A DNA stretch of 64,000 nucleotides from Candidatus Limnocylindria bacterium (GCA_035708565.1 DASSSF010000058.1:2704-66703); one strand, 5' to 3'. Positions 4,639 to 60,985 are shown, counted from the stretch's first letter. Made by a program: numbers and translations. The notes: generated by a model from the letters alone, not told the origin.

Positions 4639-4685
4639 TCGACCGAGAGTACGGGACGGCGGCTAAGGGAACGCTAAGACCTGCC

Positions 4686-6596: not shown

Positions 6597-6634
6597 CCCG
6601 CTAGAGAGGATACGGATGCGGCCGCGCCGCGGGA

Positions 6635-11940: not shown

Positions 11941-11996
11941 CTGCGACACGGCTCCGCGTGGGTGCTCCGGGCGGTCTGCGCTGCGATGCTGAGGTC

Positions 11997-12608: not shown

Positions 12609-12737
12609 CGCTGCAGGATGCGCGTCACCCGCGCCAGGCGCCGCGGCGGATCAGGCTCGCGGCCGCCGTACTGGCCACATCGGACGACCCGCGCGCGGCC
12701 GTGCCGAGTGCCAACACAGCAGGCGGCGGGGTCCCAG

Positions 12738-13940: not shown

Positions 13941-13998
13941 CGCTCGATCGTCCACCTTCCCGCGCCGCGGCGGGTGGCGGTCCGCGATCAGCGATAGC

Positions 13999-38900: not shown

Positions 38901-39077
38901 GAGTACCGGCGCGACTACGGCGCCTTCCTTCTCGACCAGGGACGCGTCGCGGAAGCGCGCCGGGAGCTCGAGGCCGTGCGCGCGTTCTTCGGCTCGGACC
39001 TCGTCGCGCTCGAGCGGGACAAGACCGACGCGCTCCTCCGTCGTGCGGCGGAGGCCGAGAAGGCGGCTCGTCGCTAG
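35940..39077 (+). CDS. Class III adenylate/guanylate cyclase domain + AAA/STAND ATPase + TPR/helical repeats (1045 aa). Paralog of 17245..20544.
   Basis: 'LATILFADIVGST...FIGDAVMAVFGVP' CHD. Walker A 'GDAGVGKSRL'. Confidence 0.85.
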   Translation: MPEERKLATILFADIVGSTETGAAHDPEVVRRELSRAFAEMRQILERHGGTVEKFIGDAVMAVFGVPVAHDDDADRAVRAAFALRDRIAALSAGGRIPLELRLGLNTGQVVAGTGGETLVTGPAVNEAARLQQAAASGEILAGALTRRLTSGGVEYGPVRRVEAKGVGELEVAPAERLASAVPEQHRGIAGLQAPLIGRDEELRLLVDAYRKVEREERASLVTIYGDAGVGKSRLVRELVEALGDARVRRGRCLPYGEGITFWPVVEILRADAGITAQDTYEQATLKLRAAVLAAFGEATDDADAVARRLAVLAGIARAEDALPEVAADGVPNELRWGLRRYVELRAADEPLTLVFDDIQWAEPALYGLIEHLAEWTRAPAFLVCLARPEMRERRPGWGGGLLNAAAIRLDPLSEDESRRLIARLLDIDDLPEGVRAEVVRRAEGNPLYVEEFLRMLIDAGGVARRGGRFVATASLAELEVPPTLRGLIAARLDAAPAAVKHALQRASVVGKVFWPEAVAALGGVEGRADDVLLEAARRELVAELDERGPGGGRAWTFRHILVRDVAYVSLPKEERSRAHDLFGRWLEAAAGARLDEYADIVAYHAEQAFLLAHELGDPAAADLGRRALEGLMAAGRKARQRADAHASLAFHRRAQAIAQATAAPAAERVAAAGLAASARLQIESSDEALAEVRALLPEARAAGPSEALVALLVDTSFRTFDDKEQAFALDREAVEVARALRDPETIAFALFQSSWTPWGVGDLDMQRRCLLDALEHMRASGARRMEFGCLAWLANNGYMRGDFAAAHAYHEEAARRVAEGSSPLQRMFLTRQRGGWALSRGDLATAASLERDQLRQAQDLGLRSQIGVAHMWLARVLRDSGDLAAARAALESAVAMLAPAAEVAFRAEARAQLARVCVAMGDLEEARAQADTARAEVEADDAFTQCTSRSALAQVRAFEGRAVEAEGLFREALEGIARTGYRALHAEYRRDYGAFLLDQGRVAEARRELEAVRAFFGSDLVALERDKTDALLRRAAEAEKAARR

Positions 39078-47483: not shown

Positions 47484-48035
47484 GTGATCCGCGACCTAGA
47501 AGGGGCGGAGACGAGCGGCCGGAACCCCCCGAGGTGGCTGCTTCCGGCCGGTAGCGCCGCGTGCGTGGGCGCGTTCATCGTCGCGCTCCTTACATTTCGC
47601 CCTGCGCCGCCCCCGGAAGTCGCCTCTCCCGGTGAGTTGATGCTTGGTCCCTCGGTCATCGCGCAGGTCACGCCCGCGCCCGCGCGCCCCGTGGGCCCGT
47701 CGCTCGAGCTCCCGCAGGGAGCGTTCACGGCGGTAACGCGTCTCAACCTGTCCGGGATCACGGGGCTCGTGCCAGCGAGCGCCGCGGAGGCGGGCGTGCA
47801 GCTGCGCTACCGCCTTTCCGACGGACGCTCGCTCCTGCTCACGCGATCGCGCGACGCGCTCGCGGCGCCCGGCCTGCCGACGCCGGTCCAGGTGCGGGGA
47901 CGATCCGGTCACCTCGTCGCGACCCCGGGTCAGCCGCTCAGCCTCATCTGGAACGAGGCGCCGTTCCACTACGCGCTCGCGTCGAGCGCGCACTCGGGAT
48001 CCGAGCTCGTCGCGATCGCGGAGCGCCTCCGCTGA
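47484..48035 (+). CDS. Hypothetical single-TM protein
   Basis: 183 aa with moderately GC3-rich codons. The antisense ORF 47496..48158 is R-rich junk. Confidence 0.4.
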   Translation: MIRDLEGAETSGRNPPRWLLPAGSAACVGAFIVALLTFRPAPPPEVASPGELMLGPSVIAQVTPAPARPVGPSLELPQGAFTAVTRLNLSGITGLVPASAAEAGVQLRYRLSDGRSLLLTRSRDALAAPGLPTPVQVRGRSGHLVATPGQPLSLIWNEAPFHYALASSAHSGSELVAIAERLR

Positions 48036-48139
48036 GGCCGCGGCCGCCGCGCGCGGTCGTTCGCGCGTACTCGCGCTTCCACGCGTGGCTCCTCGGCGCG
48101 ACCCGCGGCCGGATCGGCGGGCGGCTCGGACGGACACGC

Positions 48140-48466
48140 GTGCTCCTGCTCGAGACACGCGGCAGGAAGAGCGGCGAGGCGCGCCGCACGCCGGTGTACT
48201 TCGTGCGCGACGGCGCCGACGTGATCGTCGTCGCGTCGAACTGGGGCCGCGACGACGATCCGGCCTGGTACCGCAACCTCATGGCGCGGCCGGACGACGC
48301 CGCGATGGTCGTCGACGGGCGGCGCACGGCGGTGCGGCCCGAGGCCGTCGCGCACGCGGACCGCGAACGCGTCTGGAAGGCCGCGGACGCCGCGTACCCG
48401 CAGTACGCGGACTACCGCAAGTGGACGCGGCGCGAGATCCCGCTCGTGCGCCTCATGCCGCGCTAG
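48140..48466 (+). CDS. Deazaflavin (F420H2)-dependent nitroreductase-family (DDN-like, PPOX-class split barrel)
   Basis: 'LLLETRGRKSGEARRTPVYFVRDGADVIVVASNWG...PAWYRNL...YPQYADYRKWTRREIPLVRL' is the DDN family pattern. The homologous N-terminus continues in-frame upstream to about 48040 with no canonical start. Confidence 0.75.
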   Translation: MLLLETRGRKSGEARRTPVYFVRDGADVIVVASNWGRDDDPAWYRNLMARPDDAAMVVDGRRTAVRPEAVAHADRERVWKAADAAYPQYADYRKWTRREIPLVRLMPR

Positions 48467-49587
48467 GCGGGTGCCCGCTCCTTCAGCGCGATCACGTTGA
48501 ATGCCGGGATCGGACGCGTGAGGCCCTTGAGCTCGAGATCCGGCAGGCGCTCACACTCGACCTGATCCTCGACCGCGGCGTGCACGCGCTGGCTGATCAC
48601 GATCTGGCCGTCCTTCGCCTGCCCCGCGAGCCGCGCGCCGAGGTTCGTGACCGCGCCGACCGCTCCGTAGTCGAAGCGGCCCTCGAAGCCGATCCGCCCG
48701 AGCGTCGCGTACCCGAGCGAGATCCCGACGCCGAAGCCGAGCGTGTAGCCCTTCTTCTTCCACGGCCGCGAGATCTCGCCGAAGCGCTCGCGCATCGCGA
48801 CGGCCATCCGAACGGCCCGGAGCGGCGCGTCCTCCTGCGTGATCGGGTCGTTGAAGAACGTCATGAACCCGTCGCCGGCGAAATGCTCGAGCGTGCCCTC
48901 GTGCCGGAACACGAGCTCGCCCATCGCCGCGTGGTACGTGCGGAGGACGGCGAGCGCCTCCTCGGGCTCGGAGGTGTCGGTGAAGGCGGTGTACCCGCGC
49001 AGGTCGCAGAACGCGACCGTGATCTCGCGCCGGTGCGGCTCGAGCGCCGACTCCGCGCCCTGCGACGTCACCATCTCCGCGATCTGCGGCGACAGGAAGT
49101 GGCGGAGCCGGCCGAGGCGCGCGAGCTCGTCGACCTGGTCGCGCACGCGTGCCTCGAGCGTCTGGTTCCAGTGCTCGAGCTCGCCGCGCTGGCGCTCGAC
49201 CGTGTCGTGGTACCGCTTCACGCGCAGGAGCGAGCGCACGCGAGTGAGGAGCTCGGTCTGGTCCCACGGCTTCGGGAGGAAGTCGTCCGCGCCGGCCTCG
49301 ACCGCCTTCTTCTTCTCCGGCAGGTCGCTCGCCGTGACCATGACGATCGGCAGGAACTGCGTCGCGGGGTCCGCGCGGACGCGGCGGCAGACCTCATAGC
49401 CGTCGATGCCGGGCAGCATGATGTCGAGGAGGACGAGGTCCGGCTTCTCGGTCAGCACCTTGAGGAGCGCGTCCTCGCCCGTCGCCGCCGTGACGACCGT
49501 GTAGCCCTGCGGCGCGAGGACGGCCTCGAGGAGCCGCAGGTTCTGCGGCACGTCGTCGACGGCGAGGATCTTCGCGGGCTCGGTCAC
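48463..49587 (-). CDS. Response regulator (receiver domain) fused to class III adenylate/guanylate cyclase
   Basis: REC 'ILAVDDVPQNLRL...LVLLDIMLPGIDG'. CHD 'ITVAFCDLRGYTAF...FAGDGFMTFF'. Confidence 0.9.
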   Translation of the reverse strand: MTEPAKILAVDDVPQNLRLLEAVLAPQGYTVVTAATGEDALLKVLTEKPDLVLLDIMLPGIDGYEVCRRVRADPATQFLPIVMVTASDLPEKKKAVEAGADDFLPKPWDQTELLTRVRSLLRVKRYHDTVERQRGELEHWNQTLEARVRDQVDELARLGRLRHFLSPQIAEMVTSQGAESALEPHRREITVAFCDLRGYTAFTDTSEPEEALAVLRTYHAAMGELVFRHEGTLEHFAGDGFMTFFNDPITQEDAPLRAVRMAVAMRERFGEISRPWKKKGYTLGFGVGISLGYATLGRIGFEGRFDYGAVGAVTNLGARLAGQAKDGQIVISQRVHAAVEDQVECERLPDLELKGLTRPIPAFNVIALKERAPA

Positions 49588-49955
49588 GCCCGCAGGTAGC
49601 CTCGCACCTGGTCGGGGAACACCTTGATGTCGATCGGCTTCGCGATGAAGCCGTCGAAGCCCGCCTTGTCGAAGCGCTCGCGGTCGTTCGCCATGACGGA
49701 GGCGGTGAGCGCGACGACGGGGATCTTCGACGTCGCGGCGTCCTTGCGGATCCGCTCGAACGCGGTGATCCCGTCGATCCCCGGCATCTGGATGTCCATG
49801 AGCACGAGGTCGGGCTGGTGCTCGCTCGCCATGCGGATCCCGGTCTCGCCGTCCGTCGCCTCGACGGTGCGGAAGCCCGCGAACCGGAGCACGTCGCGCG
49901 CGAGCTTCATGTTCTTCTCGTTGTCCTCGACGATGAGGATCAGCTCGTTCGCCAT
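49584..49955 (-). CDS. Single-domain CheY-like response regulator
   Basis: 123 aa with 'LILIVEDNEKN...LVLMDIQMPGIDG...KPI'. Confidence 0.9.
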   Translation of the reverse strand: MANELILIVEDNEKNMKLARDVLRFAGFRTVEATDGETGIRMASEHQPDLVLMDIQMPGIDGITAFERIRKDAATSKIPVVALTASVMANDRERFDKAGFDGFIAKPIDIKVFPDQVRGYLRA

Positions 49956-52900
49956 CTACCTCTTCGCGTCCCCCTTCAAGAGCGGCAGCGCGAACGTGAA
50001 GGTACTGCCCTTGCCGACCTCGCTGTCGACCCAGATACGCCCGCCGTGGAGCTCGACGAACTTCTTCGAGAGCGTGAGCCCGAGGCCGGTGCCCTCGCGC
50101 GCACGGCCCTCGCTCGTCGCGGCCTGGTGGAACTCCTCGAAGATCTTCTCGCGCTCGGCCTCCGGGATCCCGATGCCCGTGTCGTGCACGGCGACGCGGA
50201 CCTCGCCGTCGTCGCGATGTGCCTCGACCGCTACGTGGCCGCCGTCCGGCGTGAATTTCACGGCGTTCGAGAGGAGGTTGTAGACGATCTGTTTTACCTT
50301 CCGCTCGTCCGCGCGCACGCGGTCGACCTTCCCTCTGACCCTGAGGTCGACCTTGATGCCGTGCCGCGCGGCGCGCTCGCGCACCATCGTGACGCCGTTC
50401 TCGAGCGCCTCCTTGAGCGAGAACTCGCCGACTTCGAGCTCCATGCGGCCGGCCTCGACCTTCGAGAGGTCAAGGATGTCGTTGATGAGCGAGAGGAGGT
50501 GCCGACCCGACGAGAGGATGTCCTCGAGGTACTCCTTCTGCCGCGCGTTGGGCTCGCCGAACATGCCCTGCGCGAGGACCTCGCTGAAGCCGATGATCGC
50601 GTTGAGCGGCGTGCGCAGCTCATGGCTCATGTTCGCGAGGAACTCGCTCTTGTGCTGGTTCGCGAGCTCGAGCTGGCGCGACTTCTCCTGCGTCTCGCTG
50701 AAGAGGCGCGCGTTCTCGATTGCGATGACCGCCTGGTCCGCGAAGGTCTCGACGAGCCCGATCTGCTCACGGCTGAACGGCCGCGGCTCCGTCCGCCACA
50801 TCGCGATGACGCCGAGCGCCTTGCCCTCGTGCAGCAACGGCACGGAGAGGAGCGTCCGGAAGCCCCCCAGCTTCTGCGCGTCCAGGTACGTGTAGGTCTC
50901 GTCGGTGAGGACGTCGTGGATGTGGACCGTGCGACGCCCGATGAACGCGCGGCCGGTGGACGACCCCGCGTCGTCCGCCGCGATCGGATGCGCTCGCTGC
51001 CACTCGTGCATCACCTCGGCCTTCGTGCCGATGGCGGCGACCATCCGCAGGACCGGCCCCTCGGCGCGGTAGATGAAGCCGTTCTCCGCGCCGGCCAGGC
51101 GCGTCGCGTGCGCCACGACCGTGTTGAGCACGCCCGCGAGGTCTAGGCCCGAGCTCGTGATCTGGTTCAGGACCTCGGCGGTCGCGGTCTGCCGCGCGAG
51201 GGCGTCCTTCGTCTCGTTGAAGAGGCGTACGTTCTCCATCGCGATGGCGGCCTGATCCGCGAACGTCTCGACCAGGCGCATCTCCCGCTCCGTGAACGGA
51301 CGCACGTCGGTGTGGAAGACCATGAGCGTGCCGATCGCGCGGCCCTCGCGCATGAGTGGCACTGCGAGCCGTGTCAGCGGACCGTCCTGGGGCAGCTCCG
51401 GCCGCGTGCGCACATCCGCCACGTACTGCCGTCGCCCTGTGCGGATGCTGAGCGCGGCCAGCGTGGTGCCGCCGAGGCGCGCGTAGCCGGGGCGCGGGCT
51501 CCCGTCGGGCAACGCGGGGGCGAAGAGCGGGCCGTTGCCGGCGAGCCAGCGGATCTCATCCCCGTCGACCCGTCCGAGCTGCGCCGAGTCCGCGCCGCTG
51601 AGCGCTACCGCACGCTCGACGATCGTCTTGAGGACCGTGTCGAGGTCGAATGCCGAGCGGCTGATCGATGCGAGCACATCGGCGACCGCCGTCTGCTGCT
51701 CCAGCGCCTCTCTCGTCTCATTGAACAGGCGCACGTTCTCCATCGCGATCGCGGCCTGGTCGGCGAAGGTCGTCACGATGGCGACGTCGGCGTCCGTGAA
51801 CGGCTGCACGTGCGTTCGCCAGAGCGACAGCACGCCGACGACGCGGCCATCTCTCAGCAGCGGCACGCCGAGCATCGACCGCAGGTTGCCGACGCGCTGG
51901 TGCTCGCGCAGCGCGTAATCGGGATCGGCGCTCGCGTCGTCGATGCGGACCGCGCGACCCTCGGCCGTGACGCGTCCGGTCAGGCTGCCGCGGTCGTTCG
52001 GGGCGATCGGATGCTCCTCGTTCAGCCGGCGCAGCTCCTCCGGGATCTCGTACCCCGCGGCGATGCGCAGGAAGCCGTCGTCGTCCACGCGGTAGATCAC
52101 GCCATGCGCGGCGCGGCACAGCCGCGCCGCGCGCTCGATCACCGTGTTGAGGAGCGTCGGGAGATCGAAGGCGGAGCGTCCGATGGCGGCGAGCACCTCG
52201 CTGACGGCGGTCTGCTGCTCCAGCGCGTCCCTCGTCTCGTTGAAGAGGCGCACGTTCTCGATCGCGATGACCGCTTGATCGGCGAACGTCCGCAGGAGGT
52301 CGAGCTGCCGGTCGGCGAAGGGACCTGGTACGGAGCGCCGGAGCAGGATCGCGCCGATCGCCTTCCCCTCACGCATGAGCGGCATCGCGGCGGCGGCGCG
52401 ATGACCCGTTCGCCTCGCGAACTCGAGGGTGATCGGATAGTCGGCCGCGGCTGACGGTTCCTGGATGTCGGGGACGTGGACGAGCGCTCCGTCGACGATG
52501 GCGCGTCCCGTCATCGACGTGCGGTCCACGGGCCAGACCGCCTCGCGCTCCGCGTAGACGGGCCCCTCGTGTGCGACGGCGCGGAAGTGCCGGCCTTCGA
52601 CGAGGAGGACCGCCGCGTCCTCGGCGCCACAGAAGCGCACCGCGTTCCGGGCGATCGCGTCGAGCACGGGCTGGTCGCTCGTGGGCGAGCCCGCGATGGC
52701 GCGGAGGACCTCACCGGTCGCGGTCTGTCGCTCGAGCGCCTCTCTCGTCTCGTTGAAGAGCCGCACGTTCTCGATCGCGATCGCGGCCTGGTCCGCGAAC
52801 GTGCGGAGCAGCCCGATCTGCTTCTCGGTGAACGGGCGTACCTCCGTCCGGCGGAGCGTGATCGCGCCGAGCGGAACGCCTTCCCGGAGGAGCGGCGCGG

Positions 52901-55865
52901 CGAGGACCGTCCGCAGGCCGAGCTCTCGCGCGCCGCGCACGCCGGTCGGCCACTCCTCCTCGCTCTCGGCGGCCATGTCGTGCACGTGGATGACCTCCCG
53001 GTCGACGATCGCCCGGCCACGGACGGAGCCGCGGTCGATCTTCCACGGCGGGAGCGACCGCGCGATCGGGCCGTGCCGGGCGACCTGCTCGAAGAGGCCG
53101 TCGGCCCGGATGAGCCCGACGCCACAGTCCTCTGCCGCGCAGTAGCGGGCCGCGCTCCGCGCGATCGCGTCGAGCACGGGCTGGATGTCGCCGGGGGAGC
53201 TCGAGATGACCTGGAGGATCTCGCTGATCGCGGTCTGCTGCTCAAGCGACTCCTTCGTCTCGTTGAACAGCCGTACGTTCTCGATCGCGATCACCGCCTG
53301 GTCGGCGAACGTCCGGGCGAGGTCGATCTGCCGCTCGGTGAAGGGGCGCACCTCGGCCCGCCGCATGACGATCGCACCGACGGCCGTGCCCTGGCGGAGC
53401 AGCGGCGCGGCGAGCGTCGTGCGATGCCCGAACTTCGTCGCGAGCTCCTGGGTGCGCGGGTACGTGTCGTCCGCGAGCGGATCCTCGACCTGGAGCACGC
53501 GTGACTCGAGGATCGCCCGCCCGGCGATCGCTCCGGGCTCGATCGCGACGACCGTCGGGCGGGCGCTGTCGTGGCCGGAGACGATGGTCCCCGCGTGCGC
53601 TCGGGACACGAGCCGATCACCCTCGCGCAGCAGCACGATCACGTCCTCCGCGGCGCAGAACCGCTGCGCGCTCTCCGCGATCGCGTCGAGGACCGGCTGG
53701 AGCTCCGTCGGCGACGTGGACATGACGCGGAGGATCTCGGCGGTCGCGGTCTGCCGCTCGAGCGCCTCCTTCGTCTCGTTGAAGAGCCGGACGTTCTCGA
53801 TCGCGATCGCGGCCTGGGCCGCGAGCTGCTCGACGAGCCCCACCTCGCTCTCCCTGAACCCGCCGGGGCGAGCTCGGCCGAGGCGGATGGCGCCGATCGG
53901 CTGGCCGTCCTGGAAGACAGGCACCGAGAGCCGACTGCGGCTCCACGTCTCGTGCTCGGGCTGCGCCCCTTCCATGAGCGACGCGTCCGTGGCGAAGTCC
54001 GGGGTCTGGTGCGATCGGCCGTCGAGGATCGCCCGCCCGGGCAGCGTGCCGAAGTCCAGGCCGAACCTCCAGCCGAGCGGGACCCCTTCCGGCGGCGGCG
54101 GCCAGTTGCCGGCGCGCGCCTCGCTCAGGATCTCTTGACCGGCCCTGCGGTAGAACGCCGCCTGCTCCGCGCCGCACAGCCGCATCGCCGCTTCGAGGAT
54201 CACGGTGAGGACGGGCGCGACATCGCCCCGGGCCGCGGCGATCGCACTGTGGATCTCCGCCGTGGCAGTCTGCCGCTCGAGGGCGGCCTTGGTCTCGTTG
54301 AACAGACGCACGTTCTCGATCGCGATCACCGCCTGGTCGGCGAACGTCCGGGCCAGGTCGATCTGCCGCTCGGTGAAGTGGCGCACCTCGGCCCGCCGCA
54401 TGACGATCGCGCCGACCGCGACACCTTGGCGCAGCAAGGGGGCCGCGAGCGTGGTGCGGTGGCCGTACCGCTCCGCGAGCTCGCGGGAGCGCGGGTACGA
54501 GTCGTCGGCGAGCGGGTCCTCCACCTGAAGGACCTGCGACTCGAGGATGGCGCGTCCGGCGATGGCTCCGGGCTCGATCGTGACGACAGTGGGGCGGGCG
54601 CTGTCGAGGCTTGTGACGATGGTCCCCGCGTGCGCTCGGGACACGAGCTGATCGCCCTCGCGCAGCAGCACGACCACGTCCTCCGCGGCGCAGAACCGCT
54701 GCGCGCTCTGGGCGATCGCGTCGAGGACCGGCTGGAGCTCCGTCGGCGACGTGGACATGACGCGGAGGATCTCCGCGGTCGCGGTCTGCCGATCGAGCGC
54801 TTCGGCCAGCTCACGCCGGCGACGCACGGTCCGCTCGCCGAGCCTACCCAGCGCGACGCTGCCGGCGAGCAGCGCGGCGAGCAGCGCGACGCGCAGTGCG
54901 CGATCGACGGCGAGGGTGCGTTGGAGCTCCGCTCGTTCCGCCGCGGGATCGATCGCGGCGATCACGCGCCATCCCGTATCGCCGACCGGTGCGGCGGCGG
55001 CGATGCGAGGCGAGCGTGCGATCGGGTCGTCGCGCTCGACGGCGCCGGCAGCGGTGAGCGCTGGATCGGCCGTCAGATCCGCGCCGCTGATCGGTGGCTC
55101 GAGCGCTCTCGCGGCGAGGATCCCAGCGCCGTCCGTTAGGTACAGGTCGTCGGGCGCGGATGCGTGGGGGCGAAGCAGCTCGGCGAGCGGTGCGTTGGTC
55201 ACTTCGACGACGAACGCGCCGGCGAACGGCGTGAGCCCACCCGGGATCGGCGCGACCATCTGGATCGCGGGTCCGGCGCTCGGGCCGACCGATCGTTCTA
55301 CGTACCCGTACTCAGGCCTGCCAGACGATGGCCCGCCTGCCGTCGCCAGGCGTTTCGCGCGGAGGAATGTGGGCAGGTCCGTCACGGCGGGCCCCGGGAT
55401 CCGGCCTGCGCCCGTACCTCCTGCACCCTGTCCCCCAGGGCCAGATCCAACGCCTGCGCCGACGCCGACCGGCCGACCGTCGGCGTCCACGAACCACATG
55501 CTCGAGCCGCCAGCGTCCAGTCGCGCCCCGCCGACCGGACGGAGCGCGCGCAGTGTTGTCTCGAACGCGCGCTCGAGAGTCGCCGTGTCGCGCGCGGTCA
55601 CCGCCGCCCGGACCACGGGATCGTTCGCGGTAACGAGCGCGATGTTTCCGATCTCGCGGAGCCAGGCGTTCGCGACACCCGCGCCGCGGCGTGCCGACTG
55701 CTCCGCTCGCTCCCGCAGCGACGCCTCGAGACGCTCCTTCGCGTCGGCAGCCGCCACCTCGTCCAGTACGGCGATCGGCAGCGCGATGACGAGCGCGGTG
55801 AGCAGTGGCACGTACCACCACCGCGCGAACAGGCGCTCGACGACAGGCGCGAGCTCCCGGCGCAA
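49956..55865 (-). CDS. Giant sensor histidine kinase (1969 aa): TM, extracytoplasmic sensor domain, TM, eight tandem GAF domains, HisKA, HATPase_c
   Basis: Eight 'ENVRLFNET(K/R)...LE(R/Q)QTA(T/V)...' linker-GAF units. H-box 'FLANMSHELRTPLNAI'. G-boxes 'HDTGIGI', 'GTGLGLTL'. Confidence 0.9.
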   Translation of the reverse strand: MRRELAPVVERLFARWWYVPLLTALVIALPIAVLDEVAAADAKERLEASLRERAEQSARRGAGVANAWLREIGNIALVTANDPVVRAAVTARDTATLERAFETTLRALRPVGGARLDAGGSSMWFVDADGRPVGVGAGVGSGPGGQGAGGTGAGRIPGPAVTDLPTFLRAKRLATAGGPSSGRPEYGYVERSVGPSAGPAIQMVAPIPGGLTPFAGAFVVEVTNAPLAELLRPHASAPDDLYLTDGAGILAARALEPPISGADLTADPALTAAGAVERDDPIARSPRIAAAAPVGDTGWRVIAAIDPAAERAELQRTLAVDRALRVALLAALLAGSVALGRLGERTVRRRRELAEALDRQTATAEILRVMSTSPTELQPVLDAIAQSAQRFCAAEDVVVLLREGDQLVSRAHAGTIVTSLDSARPTVVTIEPGAIAGRAILESQVLQVEDPLADDSYPRSRELAERYGHRTTLAAPLLRQGVAVGAIVMRRAEVRHFTERQIDLARTFADQAVIAIENVRLFNETKAALERQTATAEIHSAIAAARGDVAPVLTVILEAAMRLCGAEQAAFYRRAGQEILSEARAGNWPPPPEGVPLGWRFGLDFGTLPGRAILDGRSHQTPDFATDASLMEGAQPEHETWSRSRLSVPVFQDGQPIGAIRLGRARPGGFRESEVGLVEQLAAQAAIAIENVRLFNETKEALERQTATAEILRVMSTSPTELQPVLDAIAESAQRFCAAEDVIVLLREGDRLVSRAHAGTIVSGHDSARPTVVAIEPGAIAGRAILESRVLQVEDPLADDTYPRTQELATKFGHRTTLAAPLLRQGTAVGAIVMRRAEVRPFTERQIDLARTFADQAVIAIENVRLFNETKESLEQQTAISEILQVISSSPGDIQPVLDAIARSAARYCAAEDCGVGLIRADGLFEQVARHGPIARSLPPWKIDRGSVRGRAIVDREVIHVHDMAAESEEEWPTGVRGARELGLRTVLAAPLLREGVPLGAITLRRTEVRPFTEKQIGLLRTFADQAAIAIENVRLFNETREALERQTATGEVLRAIAGSPTSDQPVLDAIARNAVRFCGAEDAAVLLVEGRHFRAVAHEGPVYAEREAVWPVDRTSMTGRAIVDGALVHVPDIQEPSAAADYPITLEFARRTGHRAAAAMPLMREGKAIGAILLRRSVPGPFADRQLDLLRTFADQAVIAIENVRLFNETRDALEQQTAVSEVLAAIGRSAFDLPTLLNTVIERAARLCRAAHGVIYRVDDDGFLRIAAGYEIPEELRRLNEEHPIAPNDRGSLTGRVTAEGRAVRIDDASADPDYALREHQRVGNLRSMLGVPLLRDGRVVGVLSLWRTHVQPFTDADVAIVTTFADQAAIAMENVRLFNETREALEQQTAVADVLASISRSAFDLDTVLKTIVERAVALSGADSAQLGRVDGDEIRWLAGNGPLFAPALPDGSPRPGYARLGGTTLAALSIRTGRRQYVADVRTRPELPQDGPLTRLAVPLMREGRAIGTLMVFHTDVRPFTEREMRLVETFADQAAIAMENVRLFNETKDALARQTATAEVLNQITSSGLDLAGVLNTVVAHATRLAGAENGFIYRAEGPVLRMVAAIGTKAEVMHEWQRAHPIAADDAGSSTGRAFIGRRTVHIHDVLTDETYTYLDAQKLGGFRTLLSVPLLHEGKALGVIAMWRTEPRPFSREQIGLVETFADQAVIAIENARLFSETQEKSRQLELANQHKSEFLANMSHELRTPLNAIIGFSEVLAQGMFGEPNARQKEYLEDILSSGRHLLSLINDILDLSKVEAGRMELEVGEFSLKEALENGVTMVRERAARHGIKVDLRVRGKVDRVRADERKVKQIVYNLLSNAVKFTPDGGHVAVEAHRDDGEVRVAVHDTGIGIPEAEREKIFEEFHQAATSEGRAREGTGLGLTLSKKFVELHGGRIWVDSEVGKGSTFTFALPLLKGDAKR
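53290..53830. repeat. Direct repeat copy B (GAF3-coding) of an internal duplication within the kinase gene. About 90% nt identity to 54320..54830.
   Basis: Compared by eye: for example, 53641..53800 is nearly identical to 54670..54830. Confidence 0.7.
54320..54830. repeat. Direct repeat copy A (GAF1-coding), partner of 53290..53830
   Basis: The protein segments 'ERQTATAEILRVMSTSPTELQPVLDAIA(Q/E)SAQRFCAAEDV...' are about 90% identical between GAF1 and GAF3. Confidence 0.7.
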
Positions 55866-55985
55866 GGCCGCCCTCCTCTACCTCAGGCGGCGAGTATCCG
55901 CGCGCACGCTTCGTAACGGAAGCGTCGGGCGCACAACGCCCCCGACGTTGCGGCGGCGACGCGCCCGTCCTTACCCTTCGGCGCC

Positions 55986-58127
55986 ATGGCCGAGCCGGAG
56001 GGGATCTGGGAGACGCTGCGGCAGCGGCTCGACTACGCCTCGTTCGTCCCGCGCCTCGTCCCCGATCTCGTGCGCTCCGACCTGCGCACGCGTGCGGGCG
56101 AGCCCTACGTCGTCATCAAGAACCCCCACGGCGACAAGGGCGCGGGCACGTACCTCCGCCTCGAGGCCGCGGACGCGGCGCTCCTCGAGCTGATGGACGG
56201 GAAGCGCACGATGCAGGAGATCCTCGTCGAGCACCTCGAGCGGACCGGCTCGTTCGCGCTCGACCGCCTCGCGCGGCTGACGAGCGCCCTGCGCATGAAC
56301 GGCTTCTTCGGCGAGGAGCCGCCGCTCGTCTACGAGAAGCTCCGCGCGCGCCGCCGTCCGCTCCTCGACCGGCTCTCTCTGCTCATGCGCCGGCTGATCC
56401 TCTGGGACGTCGCGCGGTGGGAGAACGCCGAGGCCGTGGTCGACGTCGTGTACCGCCTCGGCGGCCGGCTCTTCTTCACGCGGCTCGGCGCCCTCGTCGC
56501 GGTCGCCTTCAGCGCGTACGGCCTGTGGCTCTGGGCGCAGGAGGTCCGCGCGCCGCGGCACGACCTCGTGAGCCAGGACGGCTCGTACACGCTCGGGATC
56601 CTCATCCTCGTCGTGCTCCAGGTGATCTCGATCTCCGTGCACGAGGCGGGGCACGCGCTCGCGATCCGCCACTACGGCCGGCGCGTGCGTCGGCTCGGCT
56701 TCGCGATCTACTACCTCTTCCCGTGCTTCTACGTGGACGCGACGGACATGACGCTCGCGTCGCGCCGCGAGCGCGTGGTCGTGTCGCTCGCCGGTCCCGT
56801 CGGGGGGCTGCTCACGGCGGCGGTCTGCGCGGTCGTGACCGCCACCGCCGGCGACTCGCTCGCGGCCTCCCTCGCGTTCAAGGCGGCGAGCCTGTTCGTC
56901 TTCCAGTTCTTCCTGAACCTGCTGCCGATCCTCGACCTCGACGGCTACAACATCCTCGTCGACGCGCTCGACATCCCGCTGCTGCGCCAGCGGGCGGTCG
57001 GCTTCGTCCGCGGGCGCGCGATCCGCAAGATCCGCCGCCGCGAGAAGTGGACGCGCGGGGAGGTCGGCCTCGCGGCGTTCGGCGGCTCGGCGATCCTCAT
57101 CTCCTTCCTCATGCTCTTCATCGCGCTCTGGCTGTGGCAGACGCGAGTGCAGGCCGCGACCAGCGAGCTCGTCGCGATCGGGCCCGTGGGACTCCTCGGC
57201 CTCGCCCTCATCGTCCTCGTCTTCGTCGGTCCGCTGCTCGTGGCGCTCGCGGGCCGCGTGCTCGGGCTCGGCCGCGTCGCGACGAGGTCGTTCACGTCGC
57301 GCCGCCGGAAGGCGAAGCAGCTCGAGATGGAGGAGCGGATCACGACGCTCGGCCGCATCCGCTTCCTCAACGGCCTCCCGCGCACCGCGCTCGCCGCCAT
57401 CGCGTCGCACCTCGAGGTGCACGACGTGGAGGCCGGCGAGGCGGTCTTCAGCGCGGGCGACGTCGGCGACCGCTTCTACATCGTCCGCTCGGGACGCGTC
57501 GAGGCGGTCTCGCCGGAGGGGCAGGTGCTCAACGTGATCATCCCGGGCGAAGGCTTCGGCGAGCTCGCGCTCCTCGACCGCGCGACGCGGAGCGCGACCG
57601 TGCGCGCGACGGAGCCGACGGTGCTGTGGTCGCTCGACCGCGGCCACTTCGAGCGCTGGGTCGCGGAGCGCTACGAGATCGCCGCGCGGATCCGCGCGTC
57701 GCGCGAGGAGCGCGACCGGCTCGTGCGCCTGCCCTTCTTCAGCGGGCTCTCGCGGCAGCAGCTCGAGCGGATCCTCCCGCGCATGCGCACCGTCCGAGCG
57801 AGCGCGGGCGAGGAGGTCGTGCGCGCCGGCGAGCCCGGCGACAGGTACTTCGTCATCCATACGGGGACGGCGCGCGTGACGCTCCCCGACGGCACGCACG
57901 TGCGCGACCTCGGACCGGGCGACGGCTTCGGCGAGCTCGCGCTCCTCTTCGGCGGCCCGCGGACGGCGACCGTGACCGCCACGAGCGACATGACCCTCGG
58001 CGCCCTCGGCCGTCGCGACTTCGCCGAGCTCGTGAAGCAGTCGGGCGAGACCGCCGGCACGTTCCGCCGGCGCACCGCGCACTATGTCGGCGCCGGCATC
58101 GGTGCCACGGTGGCGAGGGGGTCGTAG
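55986..58127 (+). CDS. Multi-domain membrane protease: N-terminal PqqD/RRE-like domain, site-2-protease (M50) domain with HEXXH 'HEAGH', and two cyclic-nucleotide-binding domains (713 aa)
   Basis: 'YLRLEAADAALLELMDGKRTMQEILVEHL' matches the PqqD pattern (xLNxTAxxIWxLLDGxRTxxEI). TM helices surround 'VHEAGHALAIRHYG' and a later 'DLDGYN' (LDG). Two CNB domains 'FGELALL...RSATVRA' and 'FGELALLFGGPRTATVTA'. Confidence 0.85.
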   Translation: MAEPEGIWETLRQRLDYASFVPRLVPDLVRSDLRTRAGEPYVVIKNPHGDKGAGTYLRLEAADAALLELMDGKRTMQEILVEHLERTGSFALDRLARLTSALRMNGFFGEEPPLVYEKLRARRRPLLDRLSLLMRRLILWDVARWENAEAVVDVVYRLGGRLFFTRLGALVAVAFSAYGLWLWAQEVRAPRHDLVSQDGSYTLGILILVVLQVISISVHEAGHALAIRHYGRRVRRLGFAIYYLFPCFYVDATDMTLASRRERVVVSLAGPVGGLLTAAVCAVVTATAGDSLAASLAFKAASLFVFQFFLNLLPILDLDGYNILVDALDIPLLRQRAVGFVRGRAIRKIRRREKWTRGEVGLAAFGGSAILISFLMLFIALWLWQTRVQAATSELVAIGPVGLLGLALIVLVFVGPLLVALAGRVLGLGRVATRSFTSRRRKAKQLEMEERITTLGRIRFLNGLPRTALAAIASHLEVHDVEAGEAVFSAGDVGDRFYIVRSGRVEAVSPEGQVLNVIIPGEGFGELALLDRATRSATVRATEPTVLWSLDRGHFERWVAERYEIAARIRASREERDRLVRLPFFSGLSRQQLERILPRMRTVRASAGEEVVRAGEPGDRYFVIHTGTARVTLPDGTHVRDLGPGDGFGELALLFGGPRTATVTATSDMTLGALGRRDFAELVKQSGETAGTFRRRTAHYVGAGIGATVARGS

Positions 58128-58131
58128 GTAG

Positions 58132-58347
58132 ATGGACTGTTTCATCTGCGAGAAGACGGCGGTCGGCGCGTGCCGCTTCTGCGGCCGCGGCGCCTGCCGC
58201 GAGCACGCCCGGACGCACCCGTTCCTCCTGGACGTCTTCCGGGGAGACCGGCACAAGGTCCTGCGGGCGCTCGTCGTCGAGGACGCGATCCACTGTGGCG
58301 TCTGCAAGCCGAGGGGCGAGCCCGTGGAGCTTCCTGAGCTCGAGTAG
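58132..58347 (+). CDS. DUF2180-like Cys-rich zinc-ribbon small protein (71 aa)
   Basis: 'CFICEKT...CRFCGRGACREH...HCGVCKP' gives 8 Cys. It lies 4 nt after the protease stop, so it is translationally coupled. Confidence 0.65.
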   Translation: MDCFICEKTAVGACRFCGRGACREHARTHPFLLDVFRGDRHKVLRALVVEDAIHCGVCKPRGEPVELPELE

Positions 58348-58472
58348 GCCGTCTCTGTAACGCCGGCTTCCCTCGGAGGTCGGCGCGATGACGCTCGGGC
58401 GTGCCCGATCCCATCGACCGCCGCCGCGGACGCGCGCAGGGTCCGCCCTAAGACGAGCATGGAGGTAGGGCG

Positions 58473-58832
58473 ATGAGCGACAAGATGGACGTGAGCGGGA
58501 GCGTGGCGACGGGCAAGGCGCTCGACGACGTCCGGCTCGGGGCGGCCATCCCCGCCGGGGACCCCACCGCCGTGTCGGCGGCGGAGGCGTGGCCGGAGCA
58601 CGCGCTGGCTCGGCTGAACGAGGCGCAGGGGGCGGCGGAGCTCGATGCCTCTGCGGCGGCCCAGTGGCCGGAGCACGCGATCACGCGCGTCTCGGCGGCG
58701 GAGGCCGGGTCCCGCGAGGGCGACGCGTACCTGACGGCGGACGAGGCCGGCCGCGACGCGGGCACGGAGTCCCTGGCCGACGACCTCGTGATCGTCGACG
58801 TGCCGGTGTGCGAGCAGTCACTCGAGCTCTAG
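58473..58832 (+). CDS. Small acidic hypothetical protein (119 aa) with an internal 'WPEHA' duplication and a C-terminal 'GDAYLTADEAGRD' motif
   Basis: GGAGG SD 8 nt upstream. Followed by an intrinsic terminator. Confidence 0.55.
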   Translation: MSDKMDVSGSVATGKALDDVRLGAAIPAGDPTAVSAAEAWPEHALARLNEAQGAAELDASAAAQWPEHAITRVSAAEAGSREGDAYLTADEAGRDAGTESLADDLVIVDVPVCEQSLEL

Positions 58833-58844
58833 GAACGGGCCCGA

Positions 58845-58883
58845 GGGAGCGGTCGAGCGGAAGACGCGGACCGCTCCCTTTTT
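58845..58883 (+). terminator. Rho-independent terminator (stem gggagcggtc/gaccgctccc, 14-nt loop, TTTTT)
   Basis: Perfect 10-bp GC-rich inverted repeat plus a T5 run 12 nt after the stop of 58473..58832. Confidence 0.75.
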
Positions 58884-59043
58884 CGTCGCCGGCGGCGTAC
58901 AGTTCGCGCTTCGCAAGGGCAGGGGAGGGAAACGTTCGAAGGATCACAGTCCAGGCGTTCGCCGGCCGAACGTTGCCGCGCGCGTCCGGGAGGACGCTTC
59001 CCCCCAACAGCCCGGTAGGGCGAAAGGAACGGTTCAGGGAGAT

Positions 59044-60249
59044 ATGAGCAAGCAGGCACTAGGGCAGGTCGTGCAGCGCGCGATCAGTGACGCCGCCTTC
59101 CGGCGTCAGCTCCAGAGCGACCCGACGGGCGCGCTCAAGGGCTTCGACCTCACGGCGGACGAGCGCGCGGCGCTCCGCGCCGGCGACGCGTCCAAGCTCT
59201 CCTCGCTCGGCGTCGACCAGCGCATGAGCAAGGCGTTCGCGCTCGGCGAGGCGAGCCAGGTCTCGCGGGCCCCGAGCGCCGACACGCGTCTCGCCTCGGC
59301 GACCGACGGGGGCGGATCCGACAACGCGGAGGCAGGGATCTGGGGCGACCAGTCCGGCGCGCGCGCGGCCTCGGCCTCGGACGCGACGAGCGACTCCCAG
59401 GCGCGCCTCGCGGACATCGACGCGAAGATCAGCGGCATCCCGAGCGGCACCGAGAACTGGCGCGCGGCCGACGTCGAGGGCTCGCCGGAAGCGGCGCGCT
59501 CCGCGATGGACGCCGCGGCGGGCAGCGACTCCCAGGCGCGCCTCGCGGACATCGACGCGAAGATCAGCGGCACCCCGAGCGGCACCGAGAACTGGCGCGC
59601 GGCCGACGTCGAGGGCTCGCCGGAAGCGGCGCGCTCCGCGATGGACGCCGCGGGCGGCAGCGACTCGCAGGCGCGTCTCGCGGACATCGACGCGCGCTTC
59701 AACACGGCCGACGCCGCGGACGGCAGCGACTCGAGCGCCGGCACGGCGTACGTGACGGCGGACGAGGCCGGCCGCGACGCGACCGGCATCGCGGGCGGGC
59801 GTCCGCTCTTCGCGACCTCGAGCGCCGAGGCCCAGGACGGCTCCGGCGGCAGCTTCTCGATCTCGGCCGACGAGCAGGGCCGCGGCGACGCGACGGCGGT
59901 CGCGGGCAGCGACTCGAACGCGACCTCGGCGCAGATCACGGCGGACGAGTTCGGCCGCAGGGCCGCGGCTTCCGCCGGCGACAGCGACGCCGCGGGCGGC
60001 ACGGCGTACATCACGGCCGACGAGGCCGGTCGCGACTCCAGCGCGCTCCGCTCGAGCGACGTGGCTGCCCGCGAGGGCGACGCGTTCCTCACGGCGGACG
60101 AGGCCGGCCGCGACTACGTCCCCGAGGGCGGTTCCCTCTCGCGCAACATGGCGACGGACTCGGCGGACATCCAGCGCGAGATGCTCGAGGGCGGCAGCGG
60201 TGGCGGCTCGCCCGAGCACTCGAGCGACGGACCCGAGATCCAGCCCTAG
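59044..60249 (+). CDS. Acidic repeat protein (401 aa) with an NHLP/Nif11-type leader-like N-terminal domain, 45-aa tandem repeats and recurring 'A[YF][LVI]TADEAGRD' motifs
   Basis: N-terminal 'ALGQVVQRAISDAAFRRQLQSDPTGALKGFDLTADE' matches the nitrile-hydratase-leader-peptide pattern (A..D..F(K/R)..L..DP..AL). 'aggga' SD. No signal peptide. Confidence 0.7.
   Translation: MSKQALGQVVQRAISDAAFRRQLQSDPTGALKGFDLTADERAALRAGDASKLSSLGVDQRMSKAFALGEASQVSRAPSADTRLASATDGGGSDNAEAGIWGDQSGARAASASDATSDSQARLADIDAKISGIPSGTENWRAADVEGSPEAARSAMDAAAGSDSQARLADIDAKISGTPSGTENWRAADVEGSPEAARSAMDAAGGSDSQARLADIDARFNTADAADGSDSSAGTAYVTADEAGRDATGIAGGRPLFATSSAEAQDGSGGSFSISADEQGRGDATAVAGSDSNATSAQITADEFGRRAAASAGDSDAAGGTAYITADEAGRDSSALRSSDVAAREGDAFLTADEAGRDYVPEGGSLSRNMATDSADIQREMLEGGSGGGSPEHSSDGPEIQP
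59392..59700 (+). repeat. 135-bp tandem repeat x about 2.3 (copies 59392..59526 and 59527..59661 differ at about 3 nt; a diverged partial third copy follows) inside CDS 59044..60249
   Basis: Read directly from the sequence. It encodes '..DSQARLADIDAKISG(I/T)PSGTENWRAADVEGSPEAARSAMDAA(A/G)GS'. Confidence 0.85.
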
Positions 60250-60271
60250 ACGCGGCATCCTCTCTGTCCCG

Positions 60272-60305
60272 GAAGCGCGGCCCCCACCCCCGGGGGCCGC
60301 GCTTC
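60272..60305. terminator. Bidirectional terminator hairpin (14-bp stem gaagcgcggccccc/gggggccgcgcttc) between convergent genes, followed by a T-rich tract
   Basis: Perfect inverted repeat 22 nt after the stop of 59044..60249 and immediately after the Crp stop. Confidence 0.7.
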
Positions 60306-60310
60306 TTCCT

Positions 60311-60985
60311 TTAGTAGCGGATGTCCTTCTGGAGGGCCGCCGGGTCGAGGATCTCGATGTGGCGGCGGCCGATGCGGATCGCGTTCCGTTTTTCGAGGTC
60401 GGCGAGCGCCCGGTTCACGGACACGCGCGTCGCGCCGACGAACGCGGCGAGGTCCTCCTGCGTCATGTCGAGCTGGCGCTTCCCGCCCGAGAGCTCCGAG
60501 ATGTCGAGGAGGCACTTCGCGACGCGGCCGCCCAGGTCGAGGAAGACGAGGTCCTCGACGCGGCCGCTGGACCGGCGAACCGTGCGCGCGAGGTGGGCGA
60601 GCATCTCGCGCATCGCGGCCGGGTAGCGCTCGAGCGCGGCGAGGAAGTCCTGCCGGCCGAGCGTCAGCACCTCGGTCTCGGTGATGGCCGTGACGGTCGC
60701 CGACCGCGGCGCGTCGTCGAACAGCGCGAGGTCGCCGAAGATGTCGCCGCCGCGCTGGATGCCGACGACGACCTCGCGACCGTTCTCATCGGGGAGCGAG
60801 ATCTTCACCGTGCCGGCGACGATCACGAAGAGGTGCGCCGCGGGGTCGTCGCGGTGGAAGATGACCTCGTCGCGAGCGAAGCGCCGCGGCCGCATGCGTC
60901 CGGCGAGCGCGACGCGCTCGTGCGGAGGCAGGGCGGCGAAGAGCGGCGTGATCGAGAGGTGCTCGGCGAGCGCGTTCGTGTCCAT
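60311..60985 (-). CDS. Crp/Fnr family transcriptional regulator (cNMP-binding + C-terminal HTH)
   Basis: 224 aa with 'GDIFGDLALF...RSATVTA' and HTH 'MTQEDLAAFVGATRVSVNRAL'. Confidence 0.9.
   Translation of the reverse strand: MDTNALAEHLSITPLFAALPPHERVALAGRMRPRRFARDEVIFHRDDPAAHLFVIVAGTVKISLPDENGREVVVGIQRGGDIFGDLALFDDAPRSATVTAITETEVLTLGRQDFLAALERYPAAMREMLAHLARTVRRSSGRVEDLVFLDLGGRVAKCLLDISELSGGKRQLDMTQEDLAAFVGATRVSVNRALADLEKRNAIRIGRRHIEILDPAALQKDIRY

Follow-up and report, generated by a model that had tools for sequence, protein, structure and literature searches.

In a Candidatus Limnocylindria MAG (soil Chloroflexota), three adjacent minus-strand genes encode a multi-GAF sensor histidine kinase (49956-55865), a single-domain receiver (49584-49955) and a receiver fused to a class III nucleotidyl cyclase (48463-49587). 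With a probability of about 0.7, their sequences can be read as one translationally coupled two-component operon with a cyclic-nucleotide output. The genes lie in a stretch of 64,000 nucleotides with a GC content of 72 %, the whole of which is referred to as the window. The first-pass annotation had located the three ORFs at exactly these positions, and the domain content it had proposed, a multi-GAF kinase, a CheY-like regulator and a receiver-cyclase, agrees with Pfam. The codon-position GC of the three ORFs (GC3 0.91-0.98) is typical of real genes in a window of this composition.

Gene layout and conservation of the trio

The junctions had been described as 4-nt ATGA-type overlaps throughout. 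The length is right for the receiver/cyclase junction, although the overlap reads GTGA (49584-49587) and the cyclase accordingly starts with GTG and not with ATG. At the kinase/receiver junction, the TAG stop codon (49956-49958) is immediately followed by the ATG of the receiver (49955-49953), leaving a gap of 0 nt without overlap, and the sequence GAAGAGG is found just upstream of this ATG within the 3' end of the kinase gene. These same-strand junctions of 0 and -4 nt are conserved across phyla. Downstream, the putative operon is bounded at its 3' end by a convergent plus-strand gene for an F420H2-dependent quinone reductase (48140-48466), whose stop codon overlaps that of the cyclase. Upstream, the kinase gene is separated from a divergent M50/cNMP gene by an intergenic region of 120 nt (55866-55985), the size given previously, in which both divergent promoters presumably lie. 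A scan of positions 47900-56300 for sigma-70 promoters and intrinsic terminators returned no match in either direction, but such a scan is uninformative at 72 % GC in Chloroflexota.

Across at least six phyla, spanning Chloroflexota, Actinomycetota, Alphaproteobacteria, Desulfobacterota, Methylomirabilota and Armatimonadota, 77 related loci have a GAF-containing kinase encoded directly ahead of the receiver-cyclase. An extra receiver, free or fused to a neighbour, lies between the two in 76 of these 77 loci. The order kinase, receiver, receiver-cyclase occurs in 37 loci and the same order with a hybrid kinase in about 30, while the free receiver is fused to the C-terminus of the kinase in seven loci, to the cyclase in one, and missing in one only. 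Because of this recurrence, the arrangement is not due to chance. The trio, which the first-pass annotation had called a module, is thus genuine and conserved, though a fairly ordinary putative signalling operon.

Putative signal path and cyclase domain

The kinase comprises 1969 AA and is not a hybrid. Its gene starts with TTG at position 55865, with GGAGG located 6-7 nt upstream. In the N-terminal part, two transmembrane segments (aa 15-42 and aa 322-342) flank an extracytoplasmic region of about 280 AA that is weakly similar to dCache. It is followed by an array in which Pfam detects eight GAF stretches (aa 346-1725; 50691-54830, minus strand), arranged as units of about 170 AA that each carry ENVRLFNET at their end. 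Units 1 (54291-54830) and 3 (53256-53771) are 86 % identical at the protein and 85 % at the DNA level, which indicates a recent internal duplication. The NKFDE motif of cNMP-binding GAF domains is absent from all eight units, and a role of the array as a cNMP-binding feedback sensor is therefore unsupported, if conceivable. The kinase core (49980-50651, minus strand) contains HisKA (aa 1739-1806; 84.3 bits against a Pfam cutoff of 26.9) and HATPase_c (aa 1853-1962; 114.8 bits). All boxes are present, namely the H box SHELRTPLN at 1748, the N box NLLSNAVKFT, the G1 box DTGIGI, the F box FEEF and the G2 box GTGLGL, so that the protein is predicted to be a HisKA-type sensor histidine kinase.

The free receiver (123 AA, Response_reg 96 bits in Pfam) carries the phospho-acceptor set E10, D11, D54, T84 and K106, which is near-invariant across 74 aligned sequences including the query, and its best solved relative is DivK from Caulobacter (E 3.6e-26). 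The receiver domain of the 374 AA cyclase protein (aa 7-118, Response_reg 98 bits) carries D11, D12, D55, T85 and K106, which are invariant in all 121 sequences (120 homologues and the query), and its closest solved structure is PleD (E 2e-41). Both receivers thus hold an acidic pair, a phospho-acceptor Asp, a Thr/Ser and a Lys, and on these residue grounds both should be able to accept phosphate, as phosphotransfer to both, foreseen in the first-pass annotation, would demand. The alpha1 docking helices of the two share the pattern N-(L/M)-(K/R)-L.

From these features, we infer the following phosphotransfer steps and direction of regulation. The membrane kinase would integrate extracytoplasmic signals through its Cache-like domain with cytoplasmic signals through the eight GAF domains and autophosphorylate on His1748. 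The phosphoryl group would pass to Asp55 in the PleD-like receiver domain of the cyclase protein, and the signal would run via the long alpha5/linker helix and the helices that immediately precede the catalytic domain. Two cyclase domains may thereby be aligned as an active head-to-tail dimer, by analogy with CyaC and receiver-diguanylate cyclases. The DivK-like receiver could be a second substrate of the same kinase, akin to a detached receiver of a hybrid kinase, and might act as a phosphoryl sink by which the signal is sharpened or brought to an end, or exert DivK-style feedback on the kinase.

The cyclase protein consists of the receiver, a continuous helix (aa 110-162), short helices (aa 167-185) and the cyclase domain (aa 186-368). 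The AF2 model (pLDDT 81.9) likewise predicts a receiver followed by a 53-residue helix and a cyclase fold. With 59.6 bits for Guanylate_cyc (PF00211) against a cutoff of 21.9, the domain belongs to the class III nucleotidyl cyclases. Its closest solved relatives are the cyclase domains of CyaB (3r5g, E 9e-34) and Cya2 (2w01, E 6e-30), and it is also homologous to that of CyaC (1wc0, E 6e-19). In gap-free alignment to these three, the metal-binding D195 and D239 and the transition-state N315 and R319 are retained, as is the phosphate-binding K354. The loss of catalytic residues considered in the first-pass annotation is thus not observed, and the domain would be catalytically competent judging by its metal Asp pair and transition-state Asn and Arg. 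Within the family, all 86 members share the metal Asp pair and the transition-state Arg, and a Lys or Arg at the phosphate-binding position is nearly invariant. The transition-state Asn is kept in 72 of 86 members, and 13 of 86, which form a sister subclade, have Ile instead.

The base-specifying pair is non-canonical. Adenylate cyclases carry Lys at the first and Asp (Thr in class IIIb) at the second position, and guanylate cyclases carry Glu at the first and Cys, Ser, Thr, His, Ala or Gly at the second (PMC4215837). The window cyclase has His235 and Gly308 instead, a pair that fits neither class, although Gly at the second position is compatible with a guanylate cyclase, as in Cya2. For this reason, the label of adenylate/guanylate cyclase given previously is not assignable, and cAMP and cGMP cannot be told apart as products from the sequence. 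The first position is occupied by Arg in 57 and by His in 24 of the 86 family members (81 of 86, or 82 of 87 with the window protein), and neither Lys nor Glu was seen there in any of the 86. Since these defining residues are absent and Asn is replaced by Ile in 13 of 86 members, the activity could be low or atypical.

The divergent protease cassette and alternative readings

The gene across the intergenic region (55986-58127, plus strand) had been taken for a cNMP-gated protease, and it indeed combines Peptidase_M50 with two C-terminal cNMP_binding domains. This intramembrane M50-type metalloprotease carries HEAGH at aa 219 and NLLPILDLDG at aa 311, and the PBC motifs of its cNMP-binding domains are RSA and RTA. 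It is invariably followed by a conserved Cys-rich small protein of 71 AA (58132-58347, plus strand). A candidate substrate for this protease is a protein of 401 AA (59044-60249, plus strand), whose N-terminal domain is leader-like and of the Os1348/NHLP clan (Frankia_peptide) and whose C-terminus is repetitive. The final gene of the conserved cassette encodes a Crp/Fnr-family regulator (60311-60985, minus strand) with cNMP_binding and HTH_Crp_2 domains. An ORF of 119 AA at 58473-58832, for which neither tblastn against the related loci nor a family search gave a match, is unlikely to be a gene. The phosphate-binding cassettes of the protease and Crp (RSA, RTA and RSA) were also considered as indicators of a cAMP or cGMP preference and are too weak to be used.

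The product of the cyclase is probably read in this lineage by the adjacent protease and the Crp-family regulator. The protease is a candidate receptor, and its linkage to the module is confined to a single clade, which is Limnocylindria-like and comprises the window and eight related loci (L001, L002, L004, L007-L009, L013 and L081). The first-pass annotation had combined kinase, cNMP synthesis and cNMP-gated proteolysis or Crp into a single signalling island. This linkage holds in the Limnocylindria-like clade; elsewhere, the module was found without the cassette and the cassette beside another, STAND-type cyclase. Six loci (L086-L091) contain the cassette without the module, and in L086-L088 and L091 it lies beside a different cyclase. 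As the window also encodes two further class III cyclases, a specific wiring of the protease to the cyclase described here does not necessarily follow. A metagenome scan with the single M50/cNMP protein yielded six close loci only, too few for a broad census of neighbours.

It is possible, if rather doubtful, that the operon and the divergent cassette of M50/cNMP protease, small protein, NHLP-clan protein and Crp regulator are functionally unrelated neighbours. The absence of the cassette from the module in most phyla, the cassettes without the module and the several cyclases in the genome would fit this explanation. It does not readily account for the adjacency, which is kept in all seven Limnocylindria-like loci with sufficient upstream sequence and also in L081, where a rearrangement has brought the protease gene to the position just after the cyclase gene, on the same strand. 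In addition, four of the six cassettes without the module still adjoin some class III cyclase, and the cassette itself encodes three cNMP-binding domains without including a cyclase. It could also be that the cyclase domain does not make cAMP or cGMP at all. It could instead be a weak enzyme or pseudo-enzyme, serving as a phosphorylation-dependent scaffold or heterodimer partner, or it could form another nucleotide product. Besides the Arg and His residues described above, the transition-state Asn position is Ile in 76 of 121 aligned sequences (the 120 closest homologues and the query), and in L001 the receiver-cyclase gene directly adjoins that of a second cyclase, of the STAND type. Nevertheless, we regard this as improbable, since the invariant metal Asp pair and Arg and the nearly invariant phosphate-binding Lys or Arg indicate selection for catalysis, the window protein retains the Asn, cNMP-binding proteins recur as neighbours, and Ma1120 is active with Ala in place of the Asn (PMC4215837).

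The path of the phosphoryl group could also differ from direct transfer, in that a linear phosphorelay would lead from the kinase to the free receiver, on to an Hpt protein encoded elsewhere and finally to the cyclase receiver. The free receiver does resemble those of hybrid kinases, its best NCBIfam match being the BarA receiver (2.5e-29), and besides the seven loci in which it is fused to the kinase, many actinobacterial kinase orthologues are true hybrid kinases. However, neither the kinase nor the hybrid orthologues nor any of the approximately 35 window ORFs scanned yielded an Hpt domain, which makes a His-Asp-His-Asp relay unlikely. Furthermore, kinase and receiver-cyclase are directly linked at every locus, and the resemblance between the alpha1 helices of the two receivers fits docking of both on one kinase. 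The shuttle is therefore considered very unlikely; of the two roles suggested for the extra CheY in the first-pass annotation, that of a sink is plausible, whereas a shuttle would require an Hpt protein. Direct phosphorylation of both receivers by the kinase is the reading retained here.

Significance and comparison with known systems

The window represents a large, phylum-spanning and apparently uncharacterised family, in which the genes for kinase, extra DivK-like receiver and receiver-cyclase always occur together. Orthologous cyclases occur in at least 542 species-level genomes, and literature searches found no study and no experimental data for any member of the cyclase family. The family offers a clean system for studying how a single-domain receiver shapes second-messenger output and what an Arg or His base-specifying residue selects. 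In Limnocylindria, the module points to a cNMP-binding intramembrane protease as a candidate target, which, if confirmed, would belong to an uncommon type of cNMP effector. Since the family lacks Lys and Glu at the first base-specifying position and carries Arg or His there in 81 of 86 members, a product other than cAMP is conceivable, either a non-canonical cNMP or cGMP that is recognised in a new way. In Limnocylindria, this product may gate the M50/cNMP protease and through it the maturation of an NHLP-type RiPP-like protein. This proposal is a long shot; if true, it would place second-messenger-gated intramembrane proteolysis under a DivK/PleD-style switch.

Receiver-fused class III cyclases are present in surveys of bacterial signalling proteins, and to our knowledge their biochemistry is available essentially only for cyanobacterial CyaC. 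This class IIIb adenylate cyclase from Spirulina platensis and Anabaena has the same inventory of GAF domains, HisKA/HATPase, two receivers and a class III cyclase. CyaC is a single polypeptide with two GAF domains and a canonical Lys/Thr pair, whereas the window encodes these parts in three separate genes, with a membrane-bound kinase, eight GAF domains and a His/Gly pair. The cyclase of CyaC is described as activated via phosphorylation of the adjacent, proximal receiver (PMC3009899, citing Kasahara & Ohmori 1999).

In the DivJ-PleC/DivK/PleD system, a single-domain receiver gene is likewise paired with a receiver-nucleotide-cyclase gene. In Caulobacter and Agrobacterium, divK and pleD form one operon, and both products are phosphorylated by the same kinases (PMC7003649). 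This operon is without kinase genes, whereas the window trio includes its kinase. In PleD, two receivers are joined to a GGDEF diguanylate cyclase producing c-di-GMP, while the window output is a class III cyclase in which Pfam finds no GGDEF match, so that the likeness does not extend beyond the receivers and the pairing of the genes. DivK exerts allosteric feedback on its kinase, which for the window receiver would be hypothetical.

The Pil-Chp/PilG-PilH/CyaB/Vfr system of Pseudomonas aeruginosa follows the same logic of kinase, CheY-like receivers, class III cyclase and Crp-family reader, but it uses a CheA-type kinase, and CyaB has a Lys/Thr pair, no receiver domain and indirect control. 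The guanylate cyclase Cya2 of Synechocystis shares Gly at the second base-specifying position with the window protein, yet it lacks a receiver. In Cya2, the first position is Glu, and a Tyr enhances the guanylate-cyclase activity (PMC4215837); the window protein has His and Ala at these two sites. Finally, the gcy-cgrA cluster of Rhodospirillum centenum also combines cyclase-related genes with a Crp-family reader of the product (PMC4681086); it has neither two-component control nor a protease, and its product is known to be cGMP.

Gene layout and conservation of the module

The three minus-strand ORFs described in the first-pass annotation, a multi-GAF kinase (49956-55865), a free receiver (49584-49955) and a receiver-cyclase fusion (48463-49587), match the ORF listing exactly. 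In a window with an overall GC content of about 72 %, their GC content at the third codon position is 0.91-0.98, and since such values are the signature of genuine genes here, all three are regarded as real. The domain content assigned to them also holds, as Pfam detects eight GAF domains, HisKA and HATPase_c in the kinase (1969 aa), Response_reg in the free receiver (123 aa), and Response_reg and Guanylate_cyc in the fusion (374 aa). The described 4-nt overlap of all junctions applies to receiver and cyclase, which share a GTGA, but not to kinase and receiver, where the TAG stop codon is directly followed by the ATG (0-nt gap, no overlap). Two of the three genes have non-ATG starts, TTG for the kinase and GTG for the cyclase, and a GGAGG lies at the proper distance upstream of the kinase start at 55865. 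The divergent spacer between the kinase and its neighbour indeed measures 120 nt, as described. Beyond the cyclase, the stop codon of a convergent F420H2-dependent quinone reductase gene overlaps with that of the cyclase, and therefore the module ends there.

A protein from a Candidatus Limnocylindria MAG (Chloroflexota) matches the cyclase with 100 % identity. Three metagenomic relatives with 70-75 % identity each carry the full neighbourhood of the window, namely Crp, an NHLP-like protein, a small protein and an M50/cNMP protease, divergent from the multi-GAF kinase, receiver and receiver-cyclase. In species-representative genomes, at least 542 relatives were found, and 80 loci were kept, which were analysed by tblastn with the window proteins and ORF tracing. 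A homologous kinase core with 46-78 % identity is located directly upstream on the same strand in 77 of the 77 loci retaining both regions. The order kinase, receiver, receiver-cyclase occurs in 37 loci, and a hybrid kinase precedes receiver and receiver-cyclase in about 30, mainly from Actinomycetota such as Microbacterium and Mycobacterium. The free receiver is fused to the kinase in seven loci and to the cyclase in one, and it is missing in a single locus only. Together with the constant upstream kinase, this identifies the trio as a conserved module spanning phyla, of which the extra receiver is an integral part. In the orthologous module of Actinomycetota, the cyclase is immediately followed by a fourth, conserved gene for a peptide-ligase-like protein with ATP-grasp (IQCH-like) and PGM1_C domains (L020, 11331-13070; L080, 11394-13082; L055, 11114-12688).

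Kinase, receivers and cyclase

Hydrophobic segments at aa 15-42 and aa 322-342 of the kinase enclose a stretch of about 280 aa that weakly resembles dCache. Its GAF array comprises eight units of about 170 aa apiece, all of which terminate in ENVRLFNET. Units 1 (54291-54830) and 3 (53256-53771) are 86 % identical on protein and 85 % on DNA level, whereas the remaining unit pairs share 34-56 % identity, which indicates a recent internal duplication. With 3 to 10 GAF units per kinase in close orthologues, the array is expanding and contracting quickly. Across the orthologous kinases, the count is one in Xanthobacteraceae, two in Actinomycetota, and eight to nine in Chloroflexota and Armatimonadota, and at least one GAF adjoins HisKA in every orthologue checked. 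No NKFDE motif is present in the kinase GAF units, so nothing marks them as cNMP-binding. The kinase core has an H-box (SHELRTPLN) as well as the N, G1, F and G2 boxes, and neither a receiver nor an Hpt domain was found in this protein with Pfam. In the related locus L004, an insertion-sequence remnant (DUF772, DDE_Tnp_1; 6052-7135) separates the M50/cNMP gene from a shortened kinase of 773 aa with three GAF units. The kinase of L005 also has 773 aa, and the upstream sequence of this locus is too short to reveal such a remnant.

Both receivers possess the full set of phospho-acceptor residues. Among solved structures, the free receiver is closest to DivK (E-value 3.6e-26) and the cyclase's receiver to PleD (E-value 2e-41). 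The alpha1 helices of the two receivers have a common N-(L/M)-(K/R)-L pattern, which is found family-wide and is compatible with docking of both receivers on one kinase. In the AlphaFold2 model of the receiver-cyclase (pLDDT 81.9), the receiver has the canonical fold, and its alpha5 runs on as a single helix (aa 110-162) that is followed by two short helices and the cyclase fold. As modelled, the protein thus has the usual layout of receiver, signalling helix and catalytic dimer.

Catalytic residues were placed by gap-free HMMER alignments to CyaB of P. aeruginosa, Cya2 of Synechocystis and CyaC of Spirulina. The metal-binding aspartates (D195, D239), the transition-state pair (N315, R319) and the phosphate-binding lysine (K354) are all present, and the catalytic machinery of the window protein is therefore intact. 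At the two positions specifying the purine base, the window cyclase has His235 and Gly308, CyaB and CyaC have Lys and Thr, and Cya2 has Glu and Gly. Lys-Asp is the adenylate cyclase pair, and Glu with a variable second residue, Glu-Gly in Cya2, denotes guanylate cyclases (PMC4215837). For the earlier designation as adenylate/guanylate cyclase, the class III catalytic residues are thus in place, but the His/Gly pair permits no substrate call from sequence.

In an alignment of the query and its 120 closest homologues (121 sequences), His occupies the first base-specifying position 107 times and Arg 13 times, and the second position is taken by Gly (101 sequences) or Ala (20 sequences). A set of 86 family members from metagenome contigs and species-representative genomes contains 57 with Arg and 24 with His at the first position; neither Lys nor Glu occurs there. 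The metal-binding aspartates and the transition-state Arg are invariant in these 86 members, and the transition-state Asn is kept in 72. In the 121-sequence alignment, 76 sequences have Ile instead of this Asn. These belong to a Limnocylindria subclade (among relatives P0003-P0120; loci L001-L013, L068 and L081), in which all remaining catalytic residues are invariant; the window protein retains the Asn. Loss of the Asn alone does not imply an inactive cyclase, because Ma1120 naturally has Ala at this position and is still active, and restoring the Asn reduced its activity (PMC4215837). In L001, the receiver-cyclase stop codon is also where a STAND-type cyclase gene (11113-14157) begins, which raises the possibility of cyclase heterodimers where the receiver-cyclase does not have the Asn.

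The divergent cassette and the proposed signalling island

The product of the gene divergent from the kinase is an intramembrane metalloprotease of the M50 type. It carries the motifs HEAGH and NxxPxxxxDG as well as two cNMP-binding domains (about aa 455-713). Its best NCBIfam matches, all below cutoff, are intramembrane proteases of RiPP maturation of the daptide and YydH/LiaK types. It is followed by a conserved Cys-rich protein of 71 aa, a 401-aa NHLP-like protein whose N-terminus matches an Os1348/NHLP-clan model above cutoff, and a Crp-family regulator. By these matches, the divergent cassette (55986-60985) looks like a RiPP-type maturation set. The NHLP-like protein has a repetitive C-terminal region of variable length (293-401 aa among relatives); its gene contains a 135-nt tandem repeat (59389-59694; 2.3 copies, 97 % matches) and a looser 39-nt repeat (59936-60113). 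A further ORF of 119 aa (58473-58832, plus strand) has a good codon bias, but with no family match and no tblastn match in related loci it is unlikely to be a conserved gene.

Module and cassette had been proposed to form a single signalling island. The cassette adjoins the module in L001, L002, L004, L007-L009 and L013, and also in the rearranged L081, in which the protease gene comes immediately after the cyclase and shares its strand. This adjacency was not found in other phyla, nor in two more distant Chloroflexota/Armatimonadota loci. The four-gene cassette is kept as a block in six more metagenomic loci (L086-L091), and four of the six cassettes without the module adjoin another class III cyclase; the cyclases of L086-L088 have the canonical Lys/Thr pair, and that of L086 is recognisably a STAND-type enzyme. 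Thus, the cassette seems to need a nearby cyclase, not specifically that of the module. One-to-one wiring of cyclase and cNMP receptor is further weakened by the cyclase-rich genome, with two additional STAND-type class III cyclases (Guanylate_cyc, AAA_16, TPR) in the window at 17245-20544 (minus strand) and 35940-39077 (plus strand). The island is plausible for the Limnocylindria-like clade on the grounds of adjacency; elsewhere, cassette and module each occur apart.

At 3290-5273 on the minus strand, a sigma-70 family sigma factor gene (regions 2 and 4) is followed by an overlapping PDZ and S41 peptidase gene, possibly a proteolysis-linked signalling pair unrelated to the module.

Proposed signalling scheme and relation to known systems

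Two routes for the phosphoryl group can be considered. The divK and pleD genes of Caulobacter and Agrobacterium share an operon, and DivJ/PleC phosphorylate DivK and PleD alike (PMC7003649). The cyclase of CyaC becomes active when the intrinsic kinase of this protein phosphorylates the proximal receiver (PMC3009899). Given these precedents, the DivK and PleD relationships and the common alpha1 pattern, a branched scheme is favoured, in which the kinase would transfer phosphoryl to the cyclase's receiver, switching the cyclase on, and would also phosphorylate the free receiver, which may serve as a sink or in feedback on the kinase. The less likely route is a linear phosphorelay through an Hpt, since none of the scanned proteins, among them the kinase, the hybrid orthologues and about 35 window ORFs, gave an Hpt match.

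A literature search for papers on the family of this module found none, and several of its elements are already known individually. These include receiver-controlled class III cyclases such as CyaC (PMC3009899), the operon pairing of a single-domain receiver with a receiver-cyclase in DivK-PleD (PMC7003649), and cyclase genes clustered with a Crp-family reader in R. centenum (PMC4681086). The domain inventory of CyaC (REC-GAF-GAF-kinase-REC-cyclase) equals that of the trio, but CyaC is one polypeptide. The family differs from its characterised relatives in this split across three genes and in having Arg or His in place of Lys or Glu.
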